A stretch of DNA of 64,000 nt from Methanosarcinales archaeon. GTDB lineage: Bacteria > Omnitrophota > Gorgyraeia > Duberdicusellales > 4484-171. The stretch covers positions 5,418-69,417 of the forward strand of contig JAIWAR010000002.1 in NCBI GenBank assembly GCA_048634245.1, read 5' to 3'. The position numbers and the translations under genes were made by a program. The notes beneath the pieces were generated by a model. That model had not been told where the DNA came from. It searched no databases and was given only the letters and a program-made list of their open reading frames with translations. Positions 5,954 to 38,696 of the stretch are shown here, piece after piece (positions within the stretch are counted from its first letter, which is position 1; each line of letters opens with the position of its first letter).

Positions 5954-5969
5954 ATGCCATATTATACAC

Positions 5970-6194: not shown

Positions 6195-6238
6195 ACAATT
6201 CTTTTTTAAATTTCTACCTATTATCAAATCTTCTCTAC

Positions 6239-7411
6239 TCAATCACCATACTCGCGTAAATCATTAAATGCAGCTTTGATAGTTGATACATTGACATTAA
6301 AACGTTTAGCAAGGGCAGATTTTGATATGGAATATAAGTCTTTTCCTTCATCTTTAAGCAGTGCCTCGATTATACGAAGAAATTTTAAGCGCATAGTCAA
6401 CGCGCTTTTGTTTGTTCTAATAATAGACCTGGTGGGTATACTGAATTGAGATTGCTTCGCTTCGCTCGCAATGACGATAGGCTTCAGTGCTACAACAGCA
6501 TCTCTTCCAAAAACAAACTTTACGTTAATAAGATGATAGCGATTTTGTAGTTTTTTTAAGGTTTTAATTACTTGCCGCCTCAAAGCGCTATATGTCCATG
6601 AATCAGGCATGCCTAAACTTAAAGCCATAGCTTCTAAACTTATTAAAAATTCCTGTTTGCCGGTAGTCTGACTATGAGCTAAAAGTAATAGATAAAGATC
6701 CATAGCGCGTTCACCAGAGCTGGTAACCATACGAGAAAGATATTTTTTATTCAAAAGAAACTCTTTGGGAACAGATAAGCTTTTAGGCAGATTTTCCATA
6801 TAGGCCGGAATATAATGTCTTTTATCACGCGGCGCAGAAGATATAAGAAGGTTTTTAAGGCGTGATAGTTTTACTTGGGCTAAGTCCGGAGAATCGATCA
6901 GCGTAGAAGATTCAAAATTATTCTTCAGCGCTGAAATAGACCAATTAGCGCTGCCTTCAACTACATATCGACTATCAACCACTATAAGTTTATCATGAAG
7001 CCTGCGATTAGAGGGTATAAAATGAATGACAACTCCGGTATTTTCTAATTTCTTAAAAATAGAGCTCTTGATAAAAGGGTTCTCGCCTTTGTCAGAATCT
7101 CTGAAGCGGGTATTAAGATATAGTGTAACTTTAACGCCTCTTTCTCTTGCTTCCAACAAATCGTTAAGCAAAAGCCTTATCGGATTCCTAGTCTTTGTTC
7201 CCAGACTTATACTATATATAGAAATAACTATGGAATTTTGCGCATTATCTAAAAGCTGAATTACAGCTTCTTCGTAACTACGATCAGATATATCTTTTAC
7301 TTTGGCAGAATGAAATGTTTCTTCAAAATCACTGGAGTAAACAGAAGCAGCTAGAATAAAAGTAAAAAAGCCGAGGCTAACCCATGATGAAAGGAATTTT
7401 CGTCTACACAT
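6239..7411 (-). CDS. Secreted phospholipase-D (HKD) family nuclease-like protein with a roughly 190-aa C-terminal HTH-like extension
   Basis: Signal peptide MCRRKFLSSWVSLGFFTFILAASVYS. A single HKD motif HDKLIVVDSRYVVEGSANWS. The C-terminal region has HTH-like segments (ISKSALAKRFNVNVSTIKAAFNDL). Confidence 0.7.
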   Translation of the reverse strand: MCRRKFLSSWVSLGFFTFILAASVYSSDFEETFHSAKVKDISDRSYEEAVIQLLDNAQNSIVISIYSISLGTKTRNPIRLLLNDLLEARERGVKVTLYLNTRFRDSDKGENPFIKSSIFKKLENTGVVIHFIPSNRRLHDKLIVVDSRYVVEGSANWSISALKNNFESSTLIDSPDLAQVKLSRLKNLLISSAPRDKRHYIPAYMENLPKSLSVPKEFLLNKKYLSRMVTSSGERAMDLYLLLLAHSQTTGKQEFLISLEAMALSLGMPDSWTYSALRRQVIKTLKKLQNRYHLINVKFVFGRDAVVALKPIVIASEAKQSQFSIPTRSIIRTNKSALTMRLKFLRIIEALLKDEGKDLYSISKSALAKRFNVNVSTIKAAFNDLREYGD

Positions 7412-20613: not shown

Positions 20614-20792
20614 AATTTACTCCTATCTTAGGCAAATACTTTTTTATATCGCTTTATACGAAGCATTTTCCGGTTACTGATAATAAGAAGACGCTATTAT
20701 ACTGAATACCGAGGATAAAGCAACATTTTTTTGAAAAAATACTAACCGTAAGATATGCGCTTAAGCGATAGGGAGGAGTAACAGTGGCCGAT

Positions 20793-23748: not shown

Positions 23749-26700
23749 TCACTGATTCTCTTCTTTCTGCTCAGATTTTTTCACAGTTGCGTGCCCGGTA
23801 AGTTTAAAATCAATATCATCAATAATAGCATAGATACAGGGTAAAACGATTAAAGTTAAAGCGGTCGCGCAAATAATACCCCAAACAATAGTAAGAGCCA
23901 TAGGCCGCAGGAAAGGGTCGCCTCCCCAAATACCATAGGCTGTGGGGGTTAAACCCAAAGCAGTAGTAATTGTAGTAAGTAATACCGGCCTTAAACGCAG
24001 CTGGCCGGCACGAACAATAGATTCTCTTCTTTTAACTCCTTTGCGCCGCAGATTATTGACAAATTCAACTAAAACAATAGAGTCATTAACCACAATTCCC
24101 ATCAATCCTACAATACCCATCAACATAAAAAAACTTAAGACTAAGCCATGAAAGAAAAAAGCCCAAATAACCCCGATAAGGCCAAAAGGAATCGCCATCA
24201 TTACCACTGCCGGTTGAATTAAAGAATTAAAATTAGCCGCTAATATAAGAAAAATCAAAAAGATTGCCAACCCGAAAGCTCTTATAAAATCTTTTCCCGA
24301 TCTAATATTCTCCTGCTGTTCTCCACCATATTCTATACGGTAACCGGGATATTCTCGAGATACATCCTTAAACTCTCTCTCCAGAAGATTGTTAACCCTA
24401 AGCGAAGTAATAGCCTTAACGTCAACATCAGCCCGGATAGTAATTACTCTTTTTCCGCCTAAGTGCCGAATACGGGTTAAAGCTTCTTTATCCTCTAGGC
24501 GAGCAACTTTATTCAGAGGGATAAGATTGCCAAATTCATTAGAAATAAAAATCTTATCAAAAGTTTCCTTCTTGTCCCGATACTCTTCGGGAAAACGCAC
24601 TAAAACATCAATTTCCTCCTCAGCCTTTACCGGCTTAATTGAGGTAGCTACCCCTCCATGGAAAACATTACGAATAGAAGAAGCGATATCCGCAACCGAC
24701 AGGTATGCTCTTGCCGCCTCTTCCTGATTAACAACTACCCGGATTTCACTTCTTCCAACCTCATAATCAGAGGTAATATCCAAAACCCCTTTAGTGCTTT
24801 TCAAGAACCCGATTATCTCATCGGAAATTTCCTTTAAGACTGAAAATTTCTCTCCCCTAATTTTAACCGCTACAGCTTTTCCTATTGGCGGGCCGCCTTC
24901 CTGTTTTTCGAAGTAAATCTTATCAAAACCCTCTATGCCTTTGATCTTCTCCTTTAACCCCCTAATAATTTGAGAAACGGTTTGCTTACGTTCAGTGTAA
25001 GGAGTAAGGTGTACTGCGATTTGAGCGGTGTGGCTTCCGGATTTACCGTAAGGGTCAAACATCCAGGTTTCACCGATTGAACCAACTTGGGTGGTATAAG
25101 TATCTAATTGATTTTGAGGCAGCTCTTTGACCTTATCCTCTACCTGCTCTATTAATTCATTGGTCGTATAAAGACTTGTTCCCACCGGAGCCTCAACTCT
25201 AATCCAAAACTGTTCAATTCCTTCCTCTGTGCTAAAAAGAACAAAAGGCATATTTATAGCCAGGATAATTGTAAACAAAAACAAGATAATTATCCCTAAA
25301 ACAACCCAATAGCGCCGGTTTAGGGCTTTATTCACAATATTGGTATAAAATTTAAGAAGCTGCTTAAACCAGGGTAATTCCTTTCTCGACTTAAAATTCT
25401 TTTTACCAAAATGAACAAAATCCGCGAAGTGAGAAGGCAAAATCACTAAAGCTTCAAATAATGAGGCTGATAAAGCAATAATCACAACCAAGGGTATTCC
25501 CCAGATAAATTTGCCCAGCATCCCTCCCATAAACATAAGCGGGGAAAAAGCCGCAATTGTAGTAATGATGGTAACAGTAACCGGCTTAGCTACTTCCCGG
25601 GTTCCCAAAATTGCAGCTTCTCCGGGGTTAAATCCTTTCTCCAGATAGCGAGAACAATTTTCAGCTATAATAATTCCGTCATCCACTAACATACCTAAGA
25701 CTATAATTAAACCGAACATAGTAATAAGATTAATACTTAAACCAAATAAACCCATTAAAGCTATGGTGGCTGCGAAGGCAATAGGCAGGCCTAAGGCGGT
25801 TATTAAAGCAACCCGGAAATTCAAAAAGAGCATAAGAACACAACAAATCAGAAATATACCGATAATTCCATTATTCTTTAAAACCCCTAATCTTCTTGTA
25901 ATATAATAAGATATGTCGTTTATGTAGGCGGTTTTCAATTTAGGGGCACTTTGAGCAAAAAAGTTTTCAGTCTCCTTTTTCACCTCCTCAACAATCTTGA
26001 TAGTATCGCCGGATGCTCTCTTAATGACAGTAAGACTAATGGCCCTCATTCCATAACTCTTATTTATTATATCCTCATCTTCAAAAGAAAACCGCACAGC
26101 CGCCACATCTTTTACGCGCAGCCAATTACCGGATTCATTAGCCCTAATAACCACATTCTCAATTTCTTCTTTAGTATAAAATTCACCGGTGGTACGAATG
26201 CTAAATTCCTCCTTACCTCGTACTTTTCCTCCGGGAATACTCATATTTCGCTTTTTTAAAGCTTGCATTATCTCTTCTAAGCTCACATAGGCATCACGCA
26301 TTTTGTCGGGATTAACCTCAACCCAGACTTCCGTATCCCGATAACCTTTTCGGGAAATTGAAGACACTCCGGGAATATCTTCGAGTATATCCCCCAAATT
26401 CTCAGCATATTCCTGAAGCTCTGCTTCCGACAACTCCCCGCTTAATGCCACCTGAATTATAGGAATTTCACCGGAAGTAATTTCAGTTACTACAGGGTCA
26501 TCTTTAACGCCCTGGGGAAGATCCCGGACACGGTCAACAGCCTTTTGGATATTATCAACAACCTTATCTTTATCCTTTATATCCTGGCTAATTTTTATCA
26601 AAATGTTAGACATATTTTCAATGGAGGTAGACTGCATTTCTTCAATCCCGTCAACGCCTTTCAGCTCTTTCTCAATGGGTATAGTAACCAGCCTCTCTAT

Positions 26701-26880
26701 TTCCTGAGATGGAGCTCCGGGGTAAGCAGCAGCAATGACCACAATATCGTATGAGACCTCTGGAAAGGCCTCCCTCCTGATCTTATAGACAAAAAGAGTG
26801 TAAAAACCGGCGATAAGGATAAAAAGAGAGATAAGATTTATTAAAAGTGAGTTTTTTACTGAAAATTCTGAAATCTTCAT
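23749..26880 (-). CDS. RND-family efflux transporter permease (AcrB/CzcA-like, 12 TM)
   Basis: 1043 aa with a typical RND TM/periplasmic loop organisation. Confidence 0.85.
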   Translation of the reverse strand: MKISEFSVKNSLLINLISLFILIAGFYTLFVYKIRREAFPEVSYDIVVIAAAYPGAPSQEIERLVTIPIEKELKGVDGIEEMQSTSIENMSNILIKISQDIKDKDKVVDNIQKAVDRVRDLPQGVKDDPVVTEITSGEIPIIQVALSGELSEAELQEYAENLGDILEDIPGVSSISRKGYRDTEVWVEVNPDKMRDAYVSLEEIMQALKKRNMSIPGGKVRGKEEFSIRTTGEFYTKEEIENVVIRANESGNWLRVKDVAAVRFSFEDEDIINKSYGMRAISLTVIKRASGDTIKIVEEVKKETENFFAQSAPKLKTAYINDISYYITRRLGVLKNNGIIGIFLICCVLMLFLNFRVALITALGLPIAFAATIALMGLFGLSINLITMFGLIIVLGMLVDDGIIIAENCSRYLEKGFNPGEAAILGTREVAKPVTVTIITTIAAFSPLMFMGGMLGKFIWGIPLVVIIALSASLFEALVILPSHFADFVHFGKKNFKSRKELPWFKQLLKFYTNIVNKALNRRYWVVLGIIILFLFTIILAINMPFVLFSTEEGIEQFWIRVEAPVGTSLYTTNELIEQVEDKVKELPQNQLDTYTTQVGSIGETWMFDPYGKSGSHTAQIAVHLTPYTERKQTVSQIIRGLKEKIKGIEGFDKIYFEKQEGGPPIGKAVAVKIRGEKFSVLKEISDEIIGFLKSTKGVLDITSDYEVGRSEIRVVVNQEEAARAYLSVADIASSIRNVFHGGVATSIKPVKAEEEIDVLVRFPEEYRDKKETFDKIFISNEFGNLIPLNKVARLEDKEALTRIRHLGGKRVITIRADVDVKAITSLRVNNLLEREFKDVSREYPGYRIEYGGEQQENIRSGKDFIRAFGLAIFLIFLILAANFNSLIQPAVVMMAIPFGLIGVIWAFFFHGLVLSFFMLMGIVGLMGIVVNDSIVLVEFVNNLRRKGVKRRESIVRAGQLRLRPVLLTTITTALGLTPTAYGIWGGDPFLRPMALTIVWGIICATALTLIVLPCIYAIIDDIDFKLTGHATVKKSEQKEENQ

Positions 26881-26890
26881 AACAAAACCT

Positions 26891-28369
26891 CTACAAGGGC
26901 TCCTTCCAATACTTATCTAATAAAACATTCTTTGCCAAATCCAGTTCAATAAGCTTTACCCGGTAAGTATAAAAATTAGATGCTAAATTCAACCTTGCCT
27001 TCAGAAGATCCTCTTCGTACTGAATAAGAGTATCGGCATTTGACCGGCCGTAACCTATGCGTTTTATCTGGCTATCAAGCTTTTTCTGATGCAGCTTGAT
27101 TATAGACTCATATAACCTAACCTGATTATCAGCTGTATTAACCTGGTTTACCTTATCATTGATCTCCTGCAGAATAAGGCGCTCAACCCGCTTTAAGCGA
27201 AGCAAGAACTGCCTTTTTTCCAAATTTACTTTCTCTAATTCAGCCTTTGCCTTACGGTTCTCTAAGGATACTTTAAAAATTAGTTTAAAAGATACTTCAT
27301 CATTGCTATTATCTGCAATACCTTCCCAAGCCTTACTTCTTTGCGAATTAATATTGTTGCGGCTAAGAGTAGCTTCCAAATCTATTTCCGGCCAGAGCGC
27401 ATTTTTCTTAATCACAATATCAATTTTATTTTTCTTAAGCTCATTTCTTAAACGTTTATAGTCACGCCGCCAAAAAGTAGACTCTTTAAGGGCCTCATAT
27501 AAATTGACTACGGCAGTACTACAAACTAAATCATCTTTAGGCCTAACTTTTTCTTCAAAATCTCCTCTATTTATTAAGAAGAGTAGTTCATTCTTTGCTG
27601 TTTTCTGCGCTAGATAAGCTACTGCGAGATCGCTTTCTCTAGTGCGAACAAGAGCCTCTAAACTTAAAAGTTCACTCTCTTCAACTAAACCTAAAGAATG
27701 TTTATCATGATAAATCCTATAAAGCCTTTCTGCGCTCTTAAACATATCCTCGCTTATCAAGCGCTCCTCATTCTTCAAAACAAGATTCCAGTAAGACTTC
27801 TGGGCTTTATATATCGTCTCCTCAATATCATCTAAAGAGGTAAATTCTGAATTTTCAATATCAATTTTGGTAATTTTAATCTCGGAGCGATCGGCCAAAC
27901 CGAAGAAGTTCTTGCCTAACTCCTGGGTTAAAGAAAGTCCGACCAAAGCCTCATTGTAAGGATTTAAGACGCTGGCGGTGCCATCAGTTCGCTTCTTGCT
28001 TGCCGCAGTATCTAAAGATAGAGTTGTCCCTGTGGGAAACTTTTTCTCTAGCCCTAAAGAAAAAACATATTCTGTAGCCTCTGAACCGGCAGAAATGCTA
28101 TTTTGAGCTTTTTTATTCCGGTTATAGCCGGCCTCGGCACTAAAAATAGCGTCAAATATTGACTGAGCATCACCCAGAGAAGTCCGGCTTATATAAGCGT
28201 CGTATTGGGCAATCTGAATATCTAAAGAGTTCGCCAGAGCCAGCTCAGTTACATCTTCTAAGGATAACTCGATTACTTCCGAGGATGTCTCCTGAGAGTA
28301 TACCTTAGCGGTTAAACCCAATACCAGAAAAAAGAATATTATATACTTATTTCTTCTTATCCTTTCCAT
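26891..28369 (-). CDS. TolC-family outer-membrane efflux protein
   Basis: Signal peptide and duplicated OEP coiled-coil/beta repeats. Confidence 0.75.
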   Translation of the reverse strand: MERIRRNKYIIFFFLVLGLTAKVYSQETSSEVIELSLEDVTELALANSLDIQIAQYDAYISRTSLGDAQSIFDAIFSAEAGYNRNKKAQNSISAGSEATEYVFSLGLEKKFPTGTTLSLDTAASKKRTDGTASVLNPYNEALVGLSLTQELGKNFFGLADRSEIKITKIDIENSEFTSLDDIEETIYKAQKSYWNLVLKNEERLISEDMFKSAERLYRIYHDKHSLGLVEESELLSLEALVRTRESDLAVAYLAQKTAKNELLFLINRGDFEEKVRPKDDLVCSTAVVNLYEALKESTFWRRDYKRLRNELKKNKIDIVIKKNALWPEIDLEATLSRNNINSQRSKAWEGIADNSNDEVSFKLIFKVSLENRKAKAELEKVNLEKRQFLLRLKRVERLILQEINDKVNQVNTADNQVRLYESIIKLHQKKLDSQIKRIGYGRSNADTLIQYEEDLLKARLNLASNFYTYRVKLIELDLAKNVLLDKYWKEPL

Positions 28370-28814
28370 AAAAAGCCCTTTTTATTTTGTGTAGAATCGC
28401 TAAATAAGCCTGACGTTCTTTTTCGGTAAGAACACCGAAAATTTCAGCGATAATTTTCTTGCGGGCTACCCTTGTCTTCTCGGTAATTTTCTTACCTTCT
28501 TCAGTCAAGGTAATAAATATAACTCTCCTGTCTTCTTCATCATATACACGCTTTGCCAGCTTCATTGACACCAGCCGATTAATTAAACCAGTGGCAGCCG
28601 GAAGGCTTATCCGCAAAGCCTTAGCAATGCTCTTCATCTTCAAAGACTCATCCGTATGAAGCACCTCTAATGCAATGTATTGAGGGAAAGTAATTTTACC
28701 CCGGATTAAAGCATCAGCCCGGTTCTTCAGCATAGAACTCGCTAAACGCTGTATATAGGTTAGGGTTTGAGCAAAGTCTCCGGAAAATTCTAAAAGTTGT
28801 GTTTTTTTAGACAT
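28347..28814 (-). CDS. MarR-family transcriptional regulator
   Basis: wHTH region LKMKSIAKALRISLPAATGLINRLVSMKLAKRVYDEEDRR. Confidence 0.8.
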   Translation of the reverse strand: MSKKTQLLEFSGDFAQTLTYIQRLASSMLKNRADALIRGKITFPQYIALEVLHTDESLKMKSIAKALRISLPAATGLINRLVSMKLAKRVYDEEDRRVIFITLTEEGKKITEKTRVARKKIIAEIFGVLTEKERQAYLAILHKIKRAFYGKDKKK

Positions 28815-28832
28815 ATTTAGCCTCCTTAATGA

Positions 28833-28845
28833 TTAACTAAGTTAA
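28833..28845. promoter_or_regulatory. Perfect 13-bp palindrome TTAACTaAGTTAA, candidate MarR operator
   Basis: Read directly, about 19 bp upstream of the marR start and followed by a related TTAACTA half-site. Confidence 0.4.
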
Positions 28846-28938
28846 CTATTAATCAACTAAAGTATATAGCATATTTCCTCTTTTGTCAAGGCTAATCAAA
28901 GCTCTTGATAATTACTCCTTTACAGATAGAATATAAAG

Positions 28939-30021
28939 ATGAGAAGATATCTTAAATTCTTAGTCATAGCCAGCTTGCTTCTGGGCTTCCGGGCCGAAGC
29001 CGATCCCTTACCCCTAAAAGAAGCTCTATACTGGACGGATTTAGGTGAAAACAAAGTCCAATGCCAACTTTGTCCATGGAGATGCATTTTATCCCCCAAT
29101 CAAAAAGGATTCTGCCGGGGAAGAAAAAACATCAAAGGGAAACTCTATACCCTGAATTATGCTCAACCAATAGCTATCCATGTTGACCCTATCGAGAAAA
29201 AACCTTTAAACCATGTATACCCGGGCACAAAATCTTTTTCTATAGCTACTGCCGGCTGTAATTTGCGCTGTAAATTCTGCCAGAATTGGGAAATCGCTCA
29301 ACTGGACCCTGAGAGTGTAAGCATTGCGCCGGTATCTGCGCAAGAAATAGTCGCGCAAGCTAAAAAAACAAACTCTAAAACCATTGCTTTTACTTACACT
29401 GAACCGATGATATTCTACGAATATATGTTAGATATTGCAAAAATAGCTAAACAGGAAGGCATCAAGTGTGTAATGCATTCGGCCGGCTACGTCAATGAAA
29501 AGCCCTTAAGGGAAATAGCTAAATATCTCACAGCGGCTAATATTGACTTAAAAGGTTTTAGTGATAAATTCTACGCTTCATTTTGCGAAGGAAGCCTTGA
29601 TCCTGTGCTCAACACCTTAAAAATATTAAAAGAAGAAGGCGTTTGGTTAGAAGTAACAAATCTGCTCATCCCCGGTGCAAATGACAGTGATGAAGACATT
29701 ACCCAGCTTTGCAAATGGATTAAAGAAAATTTAGGCCCGGAAACCCCCGTTCACTTCTCAAGATTCTTTCCTCTTTATAAACTCACCAACCTCTCCCCTA
29801 CCCCTTTAAAAACCTTGCTCCGGGCTCAGAAGATTGCTGAAGGAGAAGGAATAAAATTTATCTATATCGGTAATGTCCCCCAGCAGGTAGGTGAAGATAC
29901 TGTTTGTCCCAAATGCGGTAAAATACTTATTAAACGTATTGGCTATAACGTTCTTGAAAATCTGCTAAAAGCCGGCAAATGTCCCTTCTGCGGATATAAA
30001 ATCCCCGGGGTCTGGGACTAA
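28939..30021 (+). CDS. AmmeMemoRadiSam-system radical SAM enzyme with an N-terminal RR-containing signal-peptide-like extension
   Basis: CNLRCKFCQNW radical-SAM CxxxCxxC and the family-specific upstream CQLCPWRC. N-terminus MRRYLKFLVIASLLLGFRAEA-DP. Confidence 0.75.
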   Translation: MRRYLKFLVIASLLLGFRAEADPLPLKEALYWTDLGENKVQCQLCPWRCILSPNQKGFCRGRKNIKGKLYTLNYAQPIAIHVDPIEKKPLNHVYPGTKSFSIATAGCNLRCKFCQNWEIAQLDPESVSIAPVSAQEIVAQAKKTNSKTIAFTYTEPMIFYEYMLDIAKIAKQEGIKCVMHSAGYVNEKPLREIAKYLTAANIDLKGFSDKFYASFCEGSLDPVLNTLKILKEEGVWLEVTNLLIPGANDSDEDITQLCKWIKENLGPETPVHFSRFFPLYKLTNLSPTPLKTLLRAQKIAEGEGIKFIYIGNVPQQVGEDTVCPKCGKILIKRIGYNVLENLLKAGKCPFCGYKIPGVWD

Positions 30022-30101
30022 CCCTGAGCGTCAATTAATATCCAATGTCGAAGGCTGACCCCGTTGTTTGACAATTCCTCATCCAGCCCCAAGAGTGTTT
30101 C

Positions 30102-30971
30102 CTATCTATTTTTTGCTAATGGAAAGGCTTTAATTTGCTTGTATATTTTCTCCTTACGCATTTCTGATAATTTTTTGTCTAACTCAAGAAAGAATACATA
30201 CTTTTCTCCTTTAGCAAAAAAGTGCTTGTCAGAAAAGCTTGTCTTATCCGGAATTCTTACAAACATACGGAAACCGCTTCCTTCGTTTCTTAGGCCTTTA
30301 AGGATACGCTTCCATGGCCAAACCTCAATAACAGGCCAATTTCTAGGATTCATCAATGAGTCTACATTACCGACTCTTGCAAAGACTACAAGAGGAGCAT
30401 GTGTTAATGCTTCTTTTAATTCATTTCTTGTAGCGATATCACCCTTGGCAACTTTAACCTCTTTTAGAATCTTATCGAATACTTCGTCAAATTGAAAATT
30501 AGAACCATATGTAACAAAATCATTAAGTTCTTTTCCAATAATATTTAGAATACTTCGTTCTCTCAAAAGAAAAAATGGTAAATCAAATCTGGAAGGAAGG
30601 CCTTTGTAATCTACAGTCATTTTAGCTTGCTTCTCATTCAGTTTCTTGATAACGAAAATGTTCTCTTCACCACCTATCTGATAAAACCATGCTTTAAACT
30701 TTAATTCTCTTTCAGGAATATACAATTCTGTTTCAATAGCATAAATGGTAGATTCATCAAGAAAATTCGGGCCCCAGACTCCTGGATGGTATTCTGCTTC
30801 ACCTCCACAGGCCGTAACATCAAGGGTAAATTTCGTTGAGAGATAATTAACGATATCTGAAAAAGAATGTTCGTATATTCGAGATTGTGATTTCCATATC
30901 ACGCCAGTAACAAAAATTATTGCAATAACAACAATAAATAAAAACTTTCGCTTATATTTGGCTAGATTCAT
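30102..30971 (-). CDS. Hypothetical N-terminally membrane-anchored protein in an AT-rich segment
   Basis: N-terminal TM FLFIVVIAIIFVTGVIW. No recognised domain. Confidence 0.4.
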   Translation of the reverse strand: MNLAKYKRKFLFIVVIAIIFVTGVIWKSQSRIYEHSFSDIVNYLSTKFTLDVTACGGEAEYHPGVWGPNFLDESTIYAIETELYIPERELKFKAWFYQIGGEENIFVIKKLNEKQAKMTVDYKGLPSRFDLPFFLLRERSILNIIGKELNDFVTYGSNFQFDEVFDKILKEVKVAKGDIATRNELKEALTHAPLVVFARVGNVDSLMNPRNWPVIEVWPWKRILKGLRNEGSGFRMFVRIPDKTSFSDKHFFAKGEKYVFFLELDKKLSEMRKEKIYKQIKAFPLAKNR

Positions 30972-31190
30972 GTTCCTCTACCTCCTTCCCTCCCAATTAT
31001 ATCACCGCAATCTTAAGATTGTAAACAAGTTAGCGACTGGATTTATATGTATAGACAAGGGAAATTATCGGTCTTTTTATATTCTGCAGCTAATTTTCCT
31101 ATTTCGCAAGGATTATTTTGTTTTATGTTATTTAAGAATTAAAAGTGGGCTCCTTAAAATGGTATATTTTAAGAAAAAGGAGGTTCCAAG

Positions 31191-31367
31191 ATGGCTCAAA
31201 TCCACAAAAATTTCACTGATTCTCAGATCAAAGATCTTTTTAACCGCTATATCCGCAAGGAAATACCTAGAAAATATATTCTTGAGGTTCTTGGTATAAA
31301 GAAGAGCCGTTTGGCTGTTCTTCTTAAGCAATATAAAAAGAATCCTCAAGAATTCTCTATCCGTTAA
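31191..31367 (+). CDS. 58-aa HTH-like protein, possibly an N-terminal remnant of a transposase-type DNA-binding domain
   Basis: Not in the ORF track (<60 aa). Strong AAGGAGG SD 7 nt before the ATG. The sequence MAQIHKNFTDSQIKDLFNRYIRKEIPRKYILEVLGIKKSRLAVLLKQYKKNPQEFSIR has an HTH pattern. Confidence 0.4.
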   Translation: MAQIHKNFTDSQIKDLFNRYIRKEIPRKYILEVLGIKKSRLAVLLKQYKKNPQEFSIR

Positions 31368-31374
31368 ATTGATT

Positions 31375-31414
31375 AAAGCCAGGCTTTAATCCGTAAAAAA
31401 GCCTGGCTTTGGTT
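31375..31414 (+). terminator. Candidate intrinsic terminator hairpin (aaagccaggcttt ... aaagcctggcttt) after the small HTH gene
   Basis: Exact 13-nt inverted arms, a 10-nt loop, then a weak U-rich run. Confidence 0.4.
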
Positions 31415-31502
31415 AATACGATTCTCTAATATTCTATTCATAGCTTAAAAGAATATTTCAGACGTATTTCAAACCCTTTTATTAAATTCTCGGGGGGTGG
31501 GA

Positions 31503-33623
31503 TTAATTAAAACATTCTTTTAGGCCCCAGACGAAAATTAGGAAGATGATCATTAGTAGGCTGAGTTGTACTCCCAGGAAGGGGATGAAAAAAATGGAAA
31601 AGATAAAAGTGCCCAGAGCTGCTCCGGCTAAATCGGCAGTATAGATAGATGCTGCTAAATTTTTGGGATTGGCTTGATTAGCTAACATAAGTTTACTGAG
31701 GATAGGGTATAGGGAGCCGGTAAGTACGCCTGAAATAAACGAATAACCATAGAAGATAAATTCAGCATAAGGGTGTTGCCCCAAAAACCTTATTCCGGCC
31801 ACAAAGAAAATCAGGAATAAAAACCAGAGAAAATAAAAAACCGGCAGCGGCCGCTTGATTTTAAATATCTTCTCAAGGTTTAAATTTATTAAAAATGCGC
31901 CCACACTTAAGCCGGCCATAAATATCCCGGTTAAAATACCCAACTTCCAGAAAAGAGCACCGGAATAAAGCTGAAACAGCACAAAAATTACTGCGCTCAA
32001 ACCGATAGATGAAAAGCCTACTATTGAAGCATTAGGCAGGAGCAAAACTTTTTTGCTTGATGCGCCGAAGCCACTAATAAAAAGAGCCAAAATTACAAAA
32101 ATAATCGCTATAAGATTTCTTACTTTAGGAATATTTATTAAAAGGCGCGGGTAAAATTTTGCCTGCTCGATTAAAGAATAATAGAGAAATCCTTGAGGAT
32201 TAAAATCGCTGTTTATATCAACTCCCTTCTCCAGCTTACTTTTAAGATAATTCATGCGCTCCTCATCAAGAGAATATTTAAGATGATGGATAGTAAAATA
32301 ATCCGTAAGGATATTGTGAGCTTGGAAATTTTTTATTAAATCACCGGGGCTGATATTCTTATTTAAACTAGCAATAATAATCATTGAATCTGAGGGAATA
32401 AGCAGCCAATTACCAAAGGCGAGATCTAACGTATTTATAATACAAGAGTTAAACTGGGCAATTCGCGGACTCAAAATATCAGCCCTGGAAGGTATCCTGA
32501 AGGAAAAAATGCCACGGCCGGTTAAATGCTCTCCAATAAGCTTAAAAAACTCCAAAGAAAAGTAGCGGTTAAGGGCTATGTTTGAGGGGGCGGGCATATT
32601 CATAATTATACAATCATACTTCTTTTCAGTTTCACTAAGGTAAAGACGAGGGTCATCAACAATAAAGTTAACTTTCTCTTTTTCTTTAAGTTTAACTCTA
32701 CCCCTGCTTAAAGCGGAAAGAACAGGATTTATATCTAAACAATCCAGAGTGTTTATCTTATATTTTAATATCTCTTGAACCTGGCCGGAAAAATAAGAAC
32801 CGATAAAAAGAACATCTTTGATTCCGGAGCGGGCAGAAAAAACACTATGAATAAACTCTTCATCCCCTGCTTTATCCTCACTGGTTGCAACCTGCGAACC
32901 ATTAACATATAAAGATTCTACGCCGAACTTTTTTGCTAAAATAACCGGGCCGTAATTCGAGCCTTTAGAGATAAGAATATCAGCTCCTTTAAGTTCCGCT
33001 TTTAGAATCGGATTAAAACTAAGTGAAAAAACAATACTTAAAAAAATTATTATTAGCGAAGAGATTAACTTTATTTTAGGCTTGATATCCGGAATCAACA
33101 GGAACACAAAACTTAAAAAACTAAAAATAAAGGGGTTGGAATAAGAAGAAAGAAAAAAGGTAAAAATAAGCCCGCCGATAAAAAACCCCAAGGCTTCATA
33201 GGCAAAGAATTTCCCAAAAGTCTTCTCCCCAAAGGCTTGCTTATTTAAATAATGACGGCTGAAAATACAGAATGAATAGCCAATTAAGAAACTAACCGGG
33301 CTAATAAGAAAAAAAGCGGCGATAAAAACAAAACCTAAACTTGCCGCCTCATAGTAGGCTAAGCCAACTAAAGTTTTAACCAGATGAATAGAGCCAATCA
33401 CCAGCGAGAAAACCAAGGCAAAAAGAGGCGCCAGGCTCACCAGAGACAAAGTCTTCTTATTCTTAGCTATTCGGCTTCCTAAGGAACAGAAAATAAGCCA
33501 TATCCCTACTCCCAGGATGAAGCTAAATTCATTCTTAGCTAAGGAATAAGTAAACTCCCTGAAAATTGTTAGCTGAAATATTGAGCTGACTATCCCTAAA
33601 AATACAAAAATTAACATGGACAA
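31503..33623 (-). CDS. Polytopic membrane protein with an embedded spermidine-synthase-like (aminopropyltransferase fold) domain
   Basis: TM-rich N- and C-terminal regions flank a central LFIGSYFSGQVQE...DCIIMNMPAPS...LTGRGIF segment typical of the spermidine synthase/methyltransferase fold. Confidence 0.55.
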   Translation of the reverse strand: MSMLIFVFLGIVSSIFQLTIFREFTYSLAKNEFSFILGVGIWLIFCSLGSRIAKNKKTLSLVSLAPLFALVFSLVIGSIHLVKTLVGLAYYEAASLGFVFIAAFFLISPVSFLIGYSFCIFSRHYLNKQAFGEKTFGKFFAYEALGFFIGGLIFTFFLSSYSNPFIFSFLSFVFLLIPDIKPKIKLISSLIIIFLSIVFSLSFNPILKAELKGADILISKGSNYGPVILAKKFGVESLYVNGSQVATSEDKAGDEEFIHSVFSARSGIKDVLFIGSYFSGQVQEILKYKINTLDCLDINPVLSALSRGRVKLKEKEKVNFIVDDPRLYLSETEKKYDCIIMNMPAPSNIALNRYFSLEFFKLIGEHLTGRGIFSFRIPSRADILSPRIAQFNSCIINTLDLAFGNWLLIPSDSMIIIASLNKNISPGDLIKNFQAHNILTDYFTIHHLKYSLDEERMNYLKSKLEKGVDINSDFNPQGFLYYSLIEQAKFYPRLLINIPKVRNLIAIIFVILALFISGFGASSKKVLLLPNASIVGFSSIGLSAVIFVLFQLYSGALFWKLGILTGIFMAGLSVGAFLINLNLEKIFKIKRPLPVFYFLWFLFLIFFVAGIRFLGQHPYAEFIFYGYSFISGVLTGSLYPILSKLMLANQANPKNLAASIYTADLAGAALGTFIFSIFFIPFLGVQLSLLMIIFLIFVWGLKECFN

Positions 33624-34308
33624 CTCCCCCCTTAACTCTTATATTAAGAGTATAACAGAGATGAAAGAAAATCTATATTATTTATTTCTTAGTGGATTAA
33701 TTTTAGGCTCAGGGCCCTGTTTGGCCTTCTGCGCACCGATATTAGTCAGCTACACAGCTATCCATAAAAAAACCTTTAAAGATTCATTTTTTTCCTATCT
33801 GGTATTTTCCTTATGCAAACTCCTAAGTTACGCCGTCTTAGGACTCCTCTGTGCTCTGGGGGTCAAAATAATAAACACCCCCTTAGGAGCAAAATATTTA
33901 GATTCTATTTACTTAGGTTTAGGGTATTTTATTGTTCTAATCGGGGTAGCGACTATCTTTCACAAAGGGAAAAAGCTTACTTCAATCTGCAGCTGGTTAA
34001 ATAAAGGGAATATTAAAAATGTAGGCATCCTGGGACTATTAATCGGATTTACGCCCTGTCTTCCCCTTTTGGGAATATTAAACTATATTATAATCATCTC
34101 CAAAAATATTCCCCAATCAATCATCTTTTCGCTAGTATTTGGCCTGGGAACGGTTATTTCTCCTCTATTCATTTTAGTTCTAATTTCGGGTAAATTAGTT
34201 GATCAATTCTCGAAAAATAATATATTTAAAGCGGTTATTAGAATTGTCTGCGGGCTGATTCTCTTACTCTTGGGAGGAAGAATTATTCTTCAAATACTTC
34301 TGCGCTAA
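33616..34308 (+). CDS. CcdA/DsbD-like transmembrane thiol-disulfide electron transporter family protein (putative)
   Basis: Two TM Cys motifs, GSGPCLAFCAP and GFTPCLPLLG, resembling the CcdA SPC/TPC pair; 6 predicted TM segments. Confidence 0.45.
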   Translation: MDNSPLNSYIKSITEMKENLYYLFLSGLILGSGPCLAFCAPILVSYTAIHKKTFKDSFFSYLVFSLCKLLSYAVLGLLCALGVKIINTPLGAKYLDSIYLGLGYFIVLIGVATIFHKGKKLTSICSWLNKGNIKNVGILGLLIGFTPCLPLLGILNYIIIISKNIPQSIIFSLVFGLGTVISPLFILVLISGKLVDQFSKNNIFKAVIRIVCGLILLLLGGRIILQILLR

Positions 34309-35743
34309 ATATATAGATATCGCACTCACCTTTTTTCCAGGCATCCGGCGCCATTTGAGCCTTATGTCCGCAGAGGCTATTCATAAACTCTTCTTTATTC
34401 CAGCCGGTCTCAGTTGCTACTTGAGGCAGGTATACTCCACTGCGAAAGTTATCTCTTACCAGAACTCCATGTTTACCCAAAATTATTTCCTCTGGGCCGG
34501 TAATTTTTTTTAAAGGAGAAAGAACCGATATCTCGATATGAATATCCTTTAACTCTTCTTTAGTTACGGGCGGAAACCGGGAATCCCGGGTTGATGCGGC
34601 AATAGCCATATCCCTTGCCCCCAGATAAAGAGGCTCAGTACCGACAATATTTCCAATACAGCCCCGAAGCTGATGGTTACGGCGTAAAGTAACGAAAATA
34701 CCCATTACCGTTTTAAAAACTTCATCCTCAGGCTCCCTTTCCAATATCTTTCCCTCATTTAAATAAAGAGTAATGGTATCACGGACTAATTTAAGTAATT
34801 CTTCTTTTTGCCGTTTATTTAAAAGTTCTGCCATCTCTTCACTCTCCTTTATTCTATCAGGCTCTTTTCTTATCATTATTGCCGATAGATAGCCTACCAC
34901 TCTTTCTTTGTCCTGACCGGCTTTAGACGAATTTGACCTTTTTAATACTTTTAACTTATTTGCGCCTAATTTTTTTGCGGCAATCATTACTGAGACAACC
35001 GGCCCTAAACCACACATACGGTTTTGTCCGTAGGCTGCGAAAAATAAAGCTTTGGGGTCCATTTCGCTTATTAAGCCTATAGTTTCAATGTCGGTTTTTT
35101 CAGCTTGAGGAAGAGAAAGATAATGACTCATATCGGTGCTGGCGATAATTAAAAAATTATCCCTTCCCGCTAAAAGCTCTCCCAGGGCATCCCCTAATAT
35201 CCTGCAATTTTCCCAACTCTGGCGGCCGAGAGCTAAAAGCAAAACTTTCGGTTCATTAAAAGCTGTTTGGATAAATGGCAGAATAAGTTCTATTGAATTC
35301 TCATCTTTAAATGCTTTGGGATAGGTAAAAAATTTCTCATGAGCTAAAGATATCTTTTCTGTCAGTTCCGTATCAGCGGTTAGAATTCCCAGCGGCGTTT
35401 TAAACCCTTCATCAGAAAAAACCGCTATACCGTCAAAATCAATCCTATGACTAAAGCCTACCAAAATTACAGTATCGACTTTTTTATTCTTTAATGCCTT
35501 AAACCCATAGGCAGCCGCGTCTCCGGAATAAATCAACCCGGCATGGGGGCAGATTAAAGCAATATTCTTATCTTCCGAAGGTTCAACTTTAGCATTTTTC
35601 AAATAATTATTTATATCTTTTTTAAGTATCTGAGGATCGTCAGGATACCAGGAACCGGCAAGATCAGCCTCTTTGATACTTTGGGCAAAAACACCGCTAA
35701 AAATAATAAGAAAACATAAACTTAAAAAGATAAACTTAGCCAT
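34283..35743 (-). CDS. Fused AmmeMemoRadiSam protein B (Memo-like) and protein A (AMMECR1 domain), with a Sec-type signal peptide
   Basis: N-terminus MAKFIFLSLCFLIIFSGVFA-QS. Memo motifs WYPDD...CPHAGLIYSG. C-terminal AMMECR1 LRGCIGNIVGTEPL. Confidence 0.75.
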   Translation of the reverse strand: MAKFIFLSLCFLIIFSGVFAQSIKEADLAGSWYPDDPQILKKDINNYLKNAKVEPSEDKNIALICPHAGLIYSGDAAAYGFKALKNKKVDTVILVGFSHRIDFDGIAVFSDEGFKTPLGILTADTELTEKISLAHEKFFTYPKAFKDENSIELILPFIQTAFNEPKVLLLALGRQSWENCRILGDALGELLAGRDNFLIIASTDMSHYLSLPQAEKTDIETIGLISEMDPKALFFAAYGQNRMCGLGPVVSVMIAAKKLGANKLKVLKRSNSSKAGQDKERVVGYLSAIMIRKEPDRIKESEEMAELLNKRQKEELLKLVRDTITLYLNEGKILEREPEDEVFKTVMGIFVTLRRNHQLRGCIGNIVGTEPLYLGARDMAIAASTRDSRFPPVTKEELKDIHIEISVLSPLKKITGPEEIILGKHGVLVRDNFRSGVYLPQVATETGWNKEEFMNSLCGHKAQMAPDAWKKGECDIYIFSAEVFEE

Positions 35744-35768: not shown

Positions 35769-36023
35769 TTAGAAATAAAGAGTATCTTTACTTCTTAAAT
35801 CAGACCGGTTAAGATGCTTAACTGAAAGATTGACCTTTTCTTTTTCTTTAGCCCGGGGAATCTGATAGCCGTCTTTTTCAATTTTTACTACTGTAAACTT
35901 TTTACCCATAGAAGTCACGCCAATAGAGCCCTCAACAACCTCACCGGACTCTACGGACCCGGTAATAATACAGCTTATACCGCTTATGCTATGGTAATCC
36001 TTTACGGAAAATTCTGCCCCCAT
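35769..36023 (-). CDS. Small hypothetical beta-rich protein
   Basis: ORF only. Confidence 0.3.
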   Translation of the reverse strand: MGAEFSVKDYHSISGISCIITGSVESGEVVEGSIGVTSMGKKFTVVKIEKDGYQIPRAKEKEKVNLSVKHLNRSDLRSKDTLYF

Positions 36024-36030
36024 ACCCCTC

Positions 36031-37047
36031 CTATTCGTTTGCTCTCTCTAAACCGAGAGCTAATATTTTTTGAATCAGCTTATTATAAAGAATGCCGGCT
36101 TTAGCTGCTGATTGCCCTAATTCATCATACTCGTCTAAACAAGGATTAGCATTAGCTTCAATAATGTATATTTTAGAATCTGAGGTTATTCTTATGTCAA
36201 AACGAGCATAGCACTGCATATTTAATGCCTTATACGTACGCTTACAAACCTCTTCTATCTTTTCAGTTAATCCGTTAGGCAGCCTTCCGGCAAAAACATT
36301 TTTTATCCCCCACTTCTGACGATAATCATAATCCCACTTCGCCTTATAAGTAGCAATTCTTGGTTCGTCTCCGCCAACTTCTCCAAATTTCATCTCCCGT
36401 AAAGGCAAAACTTTAATCCTCTTATTACCTAATACGCCAACATAAAATTCCCTCCCCTCTATGTACTCCTCGACTATAGCATCATCCTTTACACTTTCAT
36501 GAATAAACTTAACCCTCTCAAACAGGGAATCCTCACTATCAACGACTGAAGCCTGAGATATGCCTCGAGAGGCTTCCTCACGAAGAGGCTTTACGATAAG
36601 CGGCAGCTTAAGCCGCTTAGGCAGCCATACTTTATGTTTCTTGTAAAAAGTATAAAAATGCGGAGTTTTTATCCTATGAAAGCTTAAAATTTTCTTGCTT
36701 AAAGCTTTATTACCGCAAATAAGCAGGCTGGCCGGCGAAGCCCCGGTATAAGGAATCCCCAACATCTCTAATACCGCGGCAACATTTTTATCAAGATAGG
36801 ACTTCTGATTAAATACTTCGGCCCCATTAAATATAATATCAGGCCTATTCTCCTTAACCTCTTCCAGTAAAATATTAATATCGTTATACAACCCCAAAAA
36901 AGTTACCGTGTGGCCGGAAGCTAAAAGAGCCTTATAGATATCAGCCTCAGCACCCCAGTCAAGCTCCTTAAATTCCTTAACAAAATCATAGCCTCTGGGG
37001 GTAAAATAAGGGCTGTCAAAAAGCTGAAGAACCTTTAGTTTTTTCAT
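36031..37047 (-). CDS. ATP-grasp family ligase (D-Ala-D-Ala ligase/RimK-like fold)
   Basis: ATP-grasp pattern (ICGNKALSKKIL..., EEYIEGREFYVGVLGN..., IIEANANP). Confidence 0.65.
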   Translation of the reverse strand: MKKLKVLQLFDSPYFTPRGYDFVKEFKELDWGAEADIYKALLASGHTVTFLGLYNDINILLEEVKENRPDIIFNGAEVFNQKSYLDKNVAAVLEMLGIPYTGASPASLLICGNKALSKKILSFHRIKTPHFYTFYKKHKVWLPKRLKLPLIVKPLREEASRGISQASVVDSEDSLFERVKFIHESVKDDAIVEEYIEGREFYVGVLGNKRIKVLPLREMKFGEVGGDEPRIATYKAKWDYDYRQKWGIKNVFAGRLPNGLTEKIEEVCKRTYKALNMQCYARFDIRITSDSKIYIIEANANPCLDEYDELGQSAAKAGILYNKLIQKILALGLERANE

Positions 37048-38087
37048 CCTTCCCGGCGAAAGCCTCCCGTATACAGGTAATTCATAACTAAAGCAGTAAT
37101 ATAAGTAGAGATTTTCAACACGGCCAATGATTCAGACTCACTCGAATAAAGTCCTAAAGCCTTACAGCGCTGAATTATAATATCCAAAAGGCTGTTTATA
37201 ATATATTTTTTTTCACCGGTCCACTTAGCCGTATTATTTAAAATGTCTTTTTTATACCTTCTTATAGTATTAGCGGCGGAGGATTCTTTATTCTTCTTAC
37301 AAAGATTGCTCTCTGATGATTCTGAAAACAGAAATATCTTTTTTAAATTAGAATCATGAAAGTCCGGAAAATCTTCCATATAAAAACGGCGTTTTTTCTT
37401 ATAAAAATTCCTTAAGGTTATACGCATCCGGGAAGACTCCCAATACTTCCGGCCCCCCTTAACTAAAGGCTCCTTACCTTTAACTTCCCCCATTAATTCA
37501 TCCACATAGCTGAGTTTTCGCATTGCTTTCCATCCTTTATATTGAGCCGGCCAGTTCAAATCAGGAGTAAGCCAAACAGCAAATGTTTCAGCAAAATCTT
37601 CGTCAGGATGATACTGAGCGTAGTAGTCCTCCAGGTGCCTTACAAAATTCTTGCTATAAGGCCTAAAACGGTAGGTATCATCATACTGTTGAGAAAATTG
37701 GCCAAAAACTTTCTGCCATTTTTTCCTTCGGTATAGCTTGTATGCATAATTTAGAGCATGTCCGGTTTCATGGCGCAACAGTTTTAGGCACCAGGAGCGG
37801 GTGCCTCCCTCAGCATCTAGCACCATTTTCTTTTCTAACTTGATTAAGGCCGGGTGGGCTAAAAAGAAAGGGATACCAACTACCGGCTCTTTATCCGGAG
37901 CAAGCCACTCATCAGCTAAATAGCACAGGGGTTTAAAGTTAAACCCTTTACCCTCTAACTCCCGATAGAGCTCTTTTACGCATTCTTCCAGCCAGGTTCC
38001 TTCCAGATGTAAAGGCAGCTCGCAAACTCTTAAATCAAGGAGTTCCTCTTCTGTGAGTTTTGATAGATTGACATTCTTCTTGGGCAT
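37044..38087 (-). CDS. Putative zinc metallopeptidase-like protein (HExxH), translationally coupled to the ATP-grasp gene
   Basis: LRHETGHAL HExxH motif. A 4-bp overlap with the downstream ATP-grasp gene. Confidence 0.45.
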   Translation of the reverse strand: MPKKNVNLSKLTEEELLDLRVCELPLHLEGTWLEECVKELYRELEGKGFNFKPLCYLADEWLAPDKEPVVGIPFFLAHPALIKLEKKMVLDAEGGTRSWCLKLLRHETGHALNYAYKLYRRKKWQKVFGQFSQQYDDTYRFRPYSKNFVRHLEDYYAQYHPDEDFAETFAVWLTPDLNWPAQYKGWKAMRKLSYVDELMGEVKGKEPLVKGGRKYWESSRMRITLRNFYKKKRRFYMEDFPDFHDSNLKKIFLFSESSESNLCKKNKESSAANTIRRYKKDILNNTAKWTGEKKYIINSLLDIIIQRCKALGLYSSESESLAVLKISTYITALVMNYLYTGGFRREG

Positions 38088-38090
38088 CTA

Positions 38091-38696
38091 TTATTTTATT
38101 AATTTCACGCAATCAAAGTGATAAACCCCTTTACCCATTATGCGAGGCTCAAATTGAAAGCTTACAATAGGAAAATTTAAAACTTCGTTTCTGTCAGCAT
38201 CTTCGGGCTGCCAATCTCCCCGGGGAAAGAATTCCGCCAAAGGACAAATAACTTTTTTCCAGCCTGATGTATCATCATCAAGGAAAAACCGCCAAAGCTC
38301 TCCACCGGAATCTTTTATGTCAAAAGCAATAATTCCACCGGAATTACGGCCGTGCATATATAAACTGAAAGCATTATACTCTGCCCACTTAATATCCTCG
38401 GGTGGAGCTTCCCACCTGGCCGCTCCTTTGGTATCCAGGCCATACCCCCTCGCTACCCACATATAACCGGAAGGATTTAATTCAAAATCCAGCTTTAAAG
38501 ACTGCTCTCCGCAAATCTTTATTTTTTTATCGCAAACTACCGTCAAGGAAGAATTTTCTGAAGAACCGAAATCAACGGTTCCACTGTTTATCTCACCCTC
38601 AAAACTATCAAGCAAAAACTCCGGCGGCGCTTTAGTACAGCCAACGGAAAGAACAAGAAAACAACCTACGAATAAAATGTAGATATTCTTCATCAT
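38091..38696 (-). CDS. Putative lipoprotein (lipobox LSVGC), beta-sandwich-like
   Basis: Signal peptide plus Cys lipobox. A 3-bp gap to the upstream gene. Confidence 0.45.
   Translation of the reverse strand: MMKNIYILFVGCFLVLSVGCTKAPPEFLLDSFEGEINSGTVDFGSSENSSLTVVCDKKIKICGEQSLKLDFELNPSGYMWVARGYGLDTKGAARWEAPPEDIKWAEYNAFSLYMHGRNSGGIIAFDIKDSGGELWRFFLDDDTSGWKKVICPLAEFFPRGDWQPEDADRNEVLNFPIVSFQFEPRIMGKGVYHFDCVKLIK

Follow-up and report, generated by a model that had tools for sequence, protein, structure and literature searches.

A putative extracytoplasmic AmmeMemoRadiSam system with a CcdA-like partner in an Omnitrophota contig

We found that a 64,000-nucleotide stretch of contig JAIWAR010000002.1 (assembly GCA_048634245.1; hereafter the window) encodes, within 6.8 kb, all three components of the AmmeMemoRadiSam system, namely the radical S-adenosylmethionine (SAM) enzyme AmrS and a fusion of the Memo and AMMECR1 proteins, and that both gene products begin with predicted export signals. 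Rather probably, the system of the window is a member of an undescribed extracytoplasmic (periplasm-facing) AmmeMemoRadiSam clade with its own reductant supply. Comparison with related loci showed that the predicted export signals on AmrS and Memo-AMMECR1 co-vary: a leader on one protein goes with a leader on the other, and none goes with none. Judged by the names of its closest homologues in the databases, the window belongs to Omnitrophota.

Background

To our knowledge, radical-SAM enzymes are regarded as confined to the cytoplasm, since they depend on SAM, on an electron of low potential and on [4Fe-4S] clusters that are sensitive to oxygen. We found no paper on exported, periplasmic or secreted radical-SAM enzymes; one paper on twin-arginine translocation (Tat) mentions a radical-SAM gene, merely as a neighbour. 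The AmmeMemoRadiSam family itself is known (TIGR04335 to TIGR04337), and its exported form is undescribed in the literature that we found. A preliminary description of the window had called the function of the system unknown; in agreement with it, we found no paper on this function in the searchable literature.

Results

The genes and sites of the cluster are as follows (coordinates are those of the window).

28905-28932, + strand: promoter-like TTGATA-16-TAGAAT, from a consensus scan; ends 6 nt before the AmrS ATG
28939-30021, + strand: AmrS, radical-SAM enzyme, 360 amino acids (aa); TIGR04337 385.5 bits (cut-off 220), PF04055
28939-29001, + strand: leader of AmrS, MRRYLKFLVIASLLLGFRAEA, 21 residues; outside the family profile, read as Sec-type
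30102-30971, - strand: orphan protein of 289 aa with one N-terminal transmembrane (TM) segment; no Pfam or NCBIfam match
31503-33623, - strand: SpeE-like 14-TM protein, 706 aa, with a central Spermine_synth domain; PF01564 37.4 bits (cut-off 22.9)
33616-34308, + strand: DsbD_2 protein, CcdA-like, 230 aa, 6 TM; PF13386 67.6 bits (cut-off 24.9)
34283-35743, - strand: Memo-AMMECR1 fusion, 486 aa (system proteins B and A); TIGR04336 232 bits, TIGR04335 165 bits (232.4 and 164.8 against curated cut-offs of 26 and 99), PF01875, PF01871
35684-35743, - strand: predicted Sec signal peptide of Memo-AMMECR1, MAKFIFLSLCFLIIFSGVFA followed by QS; ends about 5 aa before the start of the Memo profile

The order is thus AmrS, the orphan, the SpeE-like gene, DsbD_2 and Memo-AMMECR1. 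The sequence elements named in the preliminary description (MRRYLKFLVIASLLLGFRAEA, FSGVFA before QS, GPCLAFCAP and TPCLPLLG) are all present where it had placed them. It had also put a CcdA-like gene between AmrS and Memo-AMMECR1, which is correct, and had left the orphan and the SpeE-like gene in the same interval unmentioned.

For comparison we used a set of 165 loci, comprising 80 species-level genome loci, 80 metagenome loci obtained with a leaderless query, four context loci and the window. They were annotated by searching six-frame open reading frames (ORFs) with hidden Markov models built for this analysis. The same cluster was found in L004, L005 and many of L006-L165.

AmrS is a regular member of its family apart from the N-terminus. 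All 11 Cys positions of the family are intact in the translation (CxxCxxxC...C, CNLRCKFC and CPKC...CPFC), and the columns of the radical-SAM CX3CX2C motif and of the accessory Cys (CNLRCKFC, CQLCPWRC...C, CPKC...CPFC) are invariant in the alignments. The TIGR04337 match begins only at residue 31. Before it stands the leader, which reads MRRYLK, then FLVIASLLLGF, then R-AEA before D, with a positive n-region and an h-region of 11 residues. Of the 120 closest AmrS homologues (63-91% identity), 114 have a hydrophobic leader whose n-region is positive. In these 114 leaders the n-region carries a mean charge of +2.6, against a roughly neutral flank behind the h-region, and is the more positive of the two in 98; many of these Omnitrophota leaders (67) have an h-region of 16-19 residues. 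The leader sequence itself varies among the homologues and only its character is conserved, which is the pattern expected of targeting signals. The nearest relative, L166, has the leader in the same frame (MRKYFKFLIIASLLLGFWSEA); the changes are synonymous or conservative, and the start codon is GTG where the window has ATG.

The fusion protein carries the motifs of both its parts in the translation (PHAG, DMSH and MCG of Memo; LRGCIG of AMMECR1). Its leader consists of MAK, FIFLSLCFLIIFSGV and FA before QS. GGAGG lies 8 nt before the ATG, family homology begins from residue ~25, and there is no in-frame ATG or GTG between this start and the conserved domain (TTG and other alternative starts were left unchecked). 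The classical Sec signal peptide that the preliminary description had recognized on this protein recurs in 118 of the 120 closest homologues, with a small-x-small site in 117 of the 118 and, in 112, an n-region whose positive charge exceeds that of the flank behind the h-region. By heuristics, both AmrS and Memo-AMMECR1 of the window have a positive n-region, an h-region of 7-15 residues and a small-x-small site, as in Sec-type signals, and the AmrS leader looks like a short cleavable Sec-type signal peptide.

The leaders are thus present far more often than chance would allow, are conserved across the clade and are not a quirk of this genome, in line with the earlier prediction that the system lies outside the cytoplasm. 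That prediction had been accompanied by the expectation that orthologues in other taxa would be leaderless, which did not hold. The wider survey, made with 50%-identity cluster representatives, revealed a large multi-phylum sister group with canonical Tat signals. Distant members (38-48% identity; TIGR04337 295-377 bits) include dozens that start with S/T-R-R-x-F-L-K and others that are leaderless, and seven of nine RR-type leaders from sister lineages pass the curated Tat model TIGR01409 (17.8-22 bits; cut-off 16.7). Tat-type AmrS occurs in Desulfobacterota, Bacteroidota, Zixibacteria, Ignavibacteriota, Planctomycetota, Poribacteria, Aminicenantes, Chloroflexota, Calditrichota and others, and includes a cultured carrier, Mangrovibacterium marinum DSM 28823 (L062). 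Altogether, relatives from about a dozen phyla have export signals on the system. One Tat-type AmrS beside a SpeE-like gene (L016, titled Candidatus Aenigmatarchaeota) is on a contig binned as a DPANN archaeon, which may reflect either an archaeal occurrence or a binning error.

The genes next to AmrS differ with the type of leader. The numbers of loci with each partner were as follows (counts for loci with at least 4 kb of flanks in parentheses).

Tat-type AmrS, 75 loci: SpeE-like in 42 (24/33), DsbD_2 in 0
AmrS with a non-RR hydrophobic leader, 30 loci: SpeE-like in 13 (10/15), DsbD_2 in 21 (12/15)
Leaderless AmrS, 33 loci: SpeE-like in 1 (1/13), DsbD_2 in 0

The SpeE-like gene was therefore present in 55/105 leader-bearing versus 1/33 leaderless loci (Fisher test, 8e-8), and DsbD_2 in 21/30 non-RR versus 0/75 Tat-type loci (2e-15). 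Most DsbD_2-positive loci come from one phylum. Within Omnitrophota, the Tat-type loci L017, L029, L042 and L046 are without DsbD_2, and the association is also found outside this phylum, in L064 (Ratteibacteria) and in the unclassified L006. The Memo protein follows AmrS: of the 48 Memo proteins beside a leader-bearing AmrS, three were cut by a contig end and all 45 assessable ones have a leader (Sec or lipoprotein), and beside leaderless AmrS four Memo proteins have no leader and one has a leader.

Unbiased clustering of the neighbourhood ORFs gave only four partners that recur, namely Memo-AMMECR1, DsbD_2, the SpeE-like protein and a DUF362 protein with a Tat signal. The last, of ~330 aa with its own signal MNRRKFLKK..., stands beside Tat-type AmrS in 15 loci from several phyla (L008, L018, L023, L025 at 5287-6273, L043, L083 and nine others) and is absent from the window. 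It is a candidate for a further component of the exported system. In a neighbour-joining tree of the mature AmrS domains, calculated with no support values, the leader-bearing and N-terminally fused proteins form one block, and the Omnitrophota-type AmrS is nested among Tat types. A search of the 64-kb window for TatA- or TatC-like motifs found none, a result that is hardly informative about the genome as a whole.

Some relatives have AmrS fused to other domains.

DsbD_2-AmrS: P0249, P0252 (cluster representatives, as are the others unless stated)
DsbD_2-FMN_bind-Fer4_5-AmrS: P0247
TM-FMN_bind-Fer4_5-AmrS: P0241, P0242 (64-66% identical to AmrS of the window)
Signal peptide-CBM_11-AmrS: P0250
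Signal peptide-beta-propeller-AmrS: P0246
Signal peptide-Memo-AMMECR1-AmrS: P0256
TM-AmrS-Memo-AMMECR1: P0245

The D-x-I-TGAT motif for flavinylation is present in the FMN_bind domains of these fusions. One paper (PMC8238504) describes NapH-like proteins (PF12801) that begin with an FMN domain as modules for extracytosolic electron transfer; neither the text of that paper nor the part of its supplement considered here mentions radical SAM, Memo or AMMECR1. A crude helix count of P0241 would put the FMN domain on the outer side and the two CX3CP motifs in loops facing the cytoplasm; AmrS, which follows the seventh helix, would again be outside. The DsbD_2 part of P0252 is predicted, also crudely, to have six TM segments in an N-out/C-out orientation (K+R 3 versus 12), which would place the fused AmrS outside. 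In two Omnitrophota loci (L013, 8473-10966; L053, 8260-10972), a leaderless AmrS ORF lies directly after, or overlaps out of frame, an ORF for FMN_bind plus a NapH-like part; in P0241 and P0242 these parts belong to a single protein. The separation in the two loci may be genuine, or it may come from a frameshift or a sequencing error.

The DsbD_2 protein resembles CcdA. A search of the PDB with its profile gave a sole match, CcdA 5VKV (E = 0.0044, full length), and both redox Cys of 5VKV align with C35 and C148 of the window protein; the L001 orthologue also matches PF02683. The alignment of AmrS-linked DsbD_2 proteins shows C35 and C148 to be invariant (21/21), the former in TM1 (GPCxxxCxP) and the latter in TM4 (PCxPL). 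The preliminary description had pointed to these two TM-embedded Cys and had overlooked a third, C39, also in TM1 and nearly invariant (20/21). Six TM segments with both termini outside are predicted from a crude count of K+R (6 in outside segments versus 12 in cytoplasmic loops). The true start is probably the ATG at 33661, since the orthologues are 214-216 aa long; an ORF beginning at 33616 would share nucleotides with the 5' end of the SpeE-like gene, which is divergent and in the NCBI gene model starts at 33617. The link between the CcdA-like gene and the system is supported by conserved synteny, by restriction to one leader type and by the DsbD_2-AmrS fusions. The usual partner of CcdA is a periplasmic thioredoxin-like acceptor; here the acceptor of the electrons may be AmrS itself.

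The SpeE-like protein, overlooked in the preliminary description, is the most widely conserved partner of the exported systems, and its gene is adjacent to AmrS in all four context loci. An AlphaFold2 model made with 39 homologues (pLDDT 89.4, pTM 0.88) shows seven helices, a soluble domain at 213-486 and seven further helices, the long last helix being read as two. In Foldseek the soluble domain matches the aminopropyltransferases 1UIR, 3ANX and 1INL (TM-score ~0.7). Hydropathy alone was ambiguous, with six or seven TM segments before the domain and no K/R bias. When the helix boundaries were taken from the model, K+R in the loops on the N-terminal side exceeded that on the other side in 39/39 Omnitrophota sequences (16.2 versus 8.1) and in 42/42 sequences from other phyla (11.9 versus 2.1). 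By the positive-inside rule, the termini are therefore predicted to be cytoplasmic and the domain to face outward in 81/81 orthologues.

In comparison with SpeE enzymes of known structure, the acidic residues that bind ribose and adenine are conserved, and the protein probably still binds an adenosyl compound. The Asp of GGGDGG, which selects decarboxylated SAM, is lost (the aligned sequence is G-a-a-l-s-G-q), and both catalytic Asp of DSTDP are replaced (n-i-p-a-P), N(L/M)PxP being conserved across phyla. These losses rule out a canonical spermidine synthase. We found no functional study of membrane-bound spermidine synthase-like proteins or COG4262.

The organization of the genes also varies among the loci. 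The four conserved genes alternate in strand (+, -, +, -) in the window (31503-35743), L004 and L005, and the same genes are co-directional in other Omnitrophota (L009, L020, L021). Convergent genes overlap at their stop ends: in the window DsbD_2 and Memo-AMMECR1 share 26 nt, and in L004 and L005 the overlap of AmrS with the SpeE-like gene is 4 nt. The starts of the SpeE-like gene and DsbD_2 are nearly back to back. The 289-aa orphan is missing in L001 and L003-L005, syntenic loci in which AmrS abuts the SpeE-like gene; it is probably a lineage-specific insertion and not part of the conserved system.

Upstream of AmrS, about 35 nt directly before the start codon, which contain TTGATA-16-TA(G/A)AAT, are the same in the window (within 28815-28938) and L166 (within 1520-1675), sharing the block CTCTTGATAATTACTCCTTTACAGATA(G/A)AAT; the rest of the intergenic region has diverged. 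Promoter-like sites occur in the region at chance level in the consensus scan, and the conservation in L166 adds weight to this one. The spacing of 6 nt between the -10 element and the start codon suggests an mRNA that is leaderless or has a very short 5' untranslated region.

Genes for a MarR regulator, a TolC-like OEP protein and an RND pump (23749-28814, - strand) adjoin the cluster and are syntenic in L001, L005 and L166. The MarR gene is divergent from AmrS and its product could regulate AmrS; the synteny is seen among close relatives only. On the other side, in the same-strand gene string as Memo-AMMECR1, is a CBM_11 lipoprotein gene (38091-38696, - strand; lipobox LSVGC; PF03425 66.9 bits), which, with the CBM_11-AmrS fusion P0250, may point to a carbohydrate as substrate. 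The interval between Memo-AMMECR1 and this gene (35769-38087, - strand) holds three tightly packed genes, syntenic in L005, for an 84-aa ORF weakly like domain 2 of EF-Tu/EF-1alpha, a D-Ala-D-Ala-ligase-like ATP-grasp protein and a Peptidase_Mx-like protein. The synteny of the MarR, OEP, RND, CBM_11, ATP-grasp and peptidase genes was seen only in close relatives, and we left these genes out of the system. In L005, a close relative, a gene for a MamF/MmsF-family magnetosome membrane protein (20448-20768, - strand) lies ~5 kb beyond the cluster.

Discussion

The clade appears to have three ways to place AmrS outside the cytoplasm and to feed it electrons. In many phyla, a canonical Tat signal would export the folded Fe-S enzyme, and DsbD_2 would be dispensable. 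In the window and most Omnitrophota, a non-RR, Sec-type leader is combined with the CcdA-like DsbD_2. In the remaining form, AmrS is fused to a NosR/NapH-like module made up of a flavinylated FMN domain, predicted to lie outside, and an Fe-S part that spans the membrane; in some cases DsbD_2 is included as well.

For the window, we propose that AmrS and Memo-AMMECR1 would cross the membrane by the Sec route and that their signal peptides would be cleaved. DsbD_2 would pass reducing equivalents outward through Cys35 and Cys148, like CcdA for apocytochrome c, and so keep the 11 Cys of AmrS reduced for [4Fe-4S] formation, supply the electron for SAM cleavage, or both. The clusters of AmrS would then form outside the cytoplasm, which is conceivable in the anoxic habitats of these organisms, rich in iron and sulfide, and would be unprecedented. 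AmrS may act on Memo-AMMECR1, or together with Memo-AMMECR1 on a substrate in the envelope; speculatively, it might modify Memo-AMMECR1 or an envelope glycan, the latter being hinted at by the fusions with CBM_11 and the propeller. The most speculative step is that the SpeE-like 14-TM protein might bring SAM or an adenosyl compound to the outer face or present it there. A full periplasmic radical-SAM pathway in many anaerobes, with AmrS exported by Tat, or by Sec and then loaded with Fe-S clusters outside, electrons from DsbD_2 or a NapH-like module, the outward domain of the SpeE-like protein as SAM carrier or presenter, Memo-AMMECR1 as partner or substrate and a target in the envelope, is a possibility that we put forward only tentatively, and we rather doubt it as a whole.

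The nearest known system is the canonical cytoplasmic AmmeMemoRadiSam system (TIGR04335/TIGR04336/TIGR04337). The window shares with it all components above the cut-offs, the motifs and the clustering, and differs in the predicted export signals on both proteins and in the added SpeE-like 14-TM and DsbD_2 proteins, which leaderless members mostly lack (SpeE-like in 1/33, DsbD_2 in 0/33). Cytochrome c maturation by CcdA/ResA offers a parallel: like CcdA, the window DsbD_2 is predicted to have six TM segments, PC-motif Cys in TM1 and TM4 and an N-out/C-out orientation, and it would be paired with a Cys-rich protein, here AmrS, that crosses unfolded and binds its cofactor outside. However, it belongs to PF13386 DsbD_2 and not to DsbD_TM, has an extra near-invariant Cys (CxxxC) and has no ResA/CcsX-like thioredoxin partner in the neighbourhoods, and the protein served would be a radical-SAM enzyme with Fe-S clusters, not an apocytochrome.

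Relatives of AmrS also share a Tat signal, or a fusion with FMN_bind (TGAT) and Fer4_5, with the Tat Fe-S oxidoreductases NosZ and RdhA and the NosR/PceC/NapH proteins that serve them, but the client here is a radical-SAM enzyme, and the window itself is without a Tat signal or a NapH-like gene. The glycyl-radical activases PflA and NrdG, the nearest characterised relatives of AmrS, share the radical-SAM core. They are cytoplasmic, AmrS scores far below their family cut-offs (next-best NCBIfam matches PFLA, 67 bits, and NrdG2, 61 bits), and there is no glycyl-radical enzyme here. The SpeE-like protein shares the full fold of spermidine synthase, including the N-terminal beta domain, and fused membrane domains (PF01564, PRK03612, 'fused MFS/spermidine synthase' NF037959), whereas its domain sits between two 7-TM halves, is predicted to face outward and is linked specifically to exported AmrS.

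Other explanations of the leaders have to be considered. If the leaders were annotation artefacts and the true starts lay downstream, the database model of the nearest homologue, P0002, which starts at an internal TTG and is without most of the leader, would be right, and the lack of a clear Shine-Dalgarno sequence before the AmrS ATG would fit. We find this hardly credible, because the DNA of P0002 itself keeps the leader frame with synonymous changes and an aligned GTG start, more than 110 orthologues of each protein (114/120 for AmrS, 118/120 for Memo-AMMECR1) keep a leader of the same character, and Memo-AMMECR1 has its GGAGG and no in-frame ATG or GTG before the conserved domain. The preliminary description had further suggested that AmrS of the window is a Tat substrate by virtue of RRYLK, exported folded with its clusters. 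In its favour are the RR at residues 2-3 with a hydrophobic stretch after it, the basic R18 in the c-region and a wider clade that is ancestrally Tat-type, but we had to abandon this idea as very unlikely. The twin arginine is RK in L166, RR adjoins the h-region in 2/114 clade members and is absent from 112, and the leader gave no match to TIGR01409, unlike seven of the nine true RR leaders. The n-region before the RR is a single Met versus 5-20 aa in the Tat n-regions of relatives, and only the non-RR leader type co-occurs with DsbD_2, as expected if AmrS crosses unfolded. It is also improbable, though less so, that the hydrophobic N-termini are uncleaved anchors holding AmrS, and perhaps Memo-AMMECR1, on the cytoplasmic face. 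Such anchors would keep the chemistry in the cytoplasm and remove the problems of SAM and Fe-S supply, and the h-regions of 16-19 residues in 67/114 leaders are nearer to the length of an anchor than to that of a cleaved signal. Yet the n-region that is more positive than the following flank in 98/114 predicts an N-in/C-out orientation, Memo-AMMECR1 has textbook cleavable signals or lipoboxes, sister lineages have canonical Tat signals, and the fusion partners FMN_bind, CBM_11 and a propeller of periplasmic type put AmrS on the outer side.

A different doubt concerns only the reductant. The system may be exported and DsbD_2 may be a transporter of thiophilic metals or solutes, or syntenic baggage of one lineage, and not a supplier of reductant; we regard this as unlikely, although it is the alternative that we take most seriously. 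Some PF13386 members, such as ArsG-like permeases, are transporters of this kind. The CxxxC and the third intramembrane Cys resemble metal or arsenical sites, there is a weak match to ArsG in NCBIfam (24.5 bits, far below its cut-off), no thioredoxin-like acceptor is nearby, and the positive loci are mostly from one phylum. On the other hand, DsbD_2-AmrS and DsbD_2-NapH-AmrS fusions exist, the association extends to L064 and L006 and tracks the leader type inside Omnitrophota, and the sole solved relative is CcdA, with both redox Cys aligned.

Several points weigh against an extracytoplasmic system with its own reductant supply. We know of no periplasmic SAM pool and of no extracytoplasmic route of Fe-S assembly, such as Sec-exported apo-AmrS would need. 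The Bacteroidota leaders are S/N-K-R-E-F-L-K variants that fall below the TIGR01409 cut-off, and we count them as Tat-like only provisionally. Nine of the 30 non-RR loci (3/15 with at least 4 kb of flanks) are without DsbD_2, several of them on short contigs. No thioredoxin-like acceptor was among the recurrent families in the ORF clustering, and the third Cys of DsbD_2 is not a feature of CcdA and would also fit binding of thiophilic metals. All the evidence is computational, nearly all the sequences are from metagenome-assembled genomes or metagenomes, and the leader and topology calls are crude predictions from hydropathy, regular expressions and positive-inside heuristics. The Fisher tests treat the loci as independent, uncorrected for phylogeny.

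Conclusions

A conserved multi-phylum clade of AmrS with Tat or Sec signals, corresponding signals on its partner and membrane electron modules of its own would overturn the assumption that radical-SAM enzymes work only in the cytoplasm. If true, two undescribed things would follow: that SAM or something in its place is available outside the cytoplasm, and that Sec-type members acquire their Fe-S clusters there. The MEMO1/AMMECR1/AmrS triad is conserved from archaea to humans, and the exported clade would give a handle on its function, as the substrate of the exported form would have to be in the cell envelope. The co-inherited partners, namely the SpeE-like protein, DsbD_2, the NapH-like module and the Tat-signal DUF362 protein, would narrow the possible chemistry.

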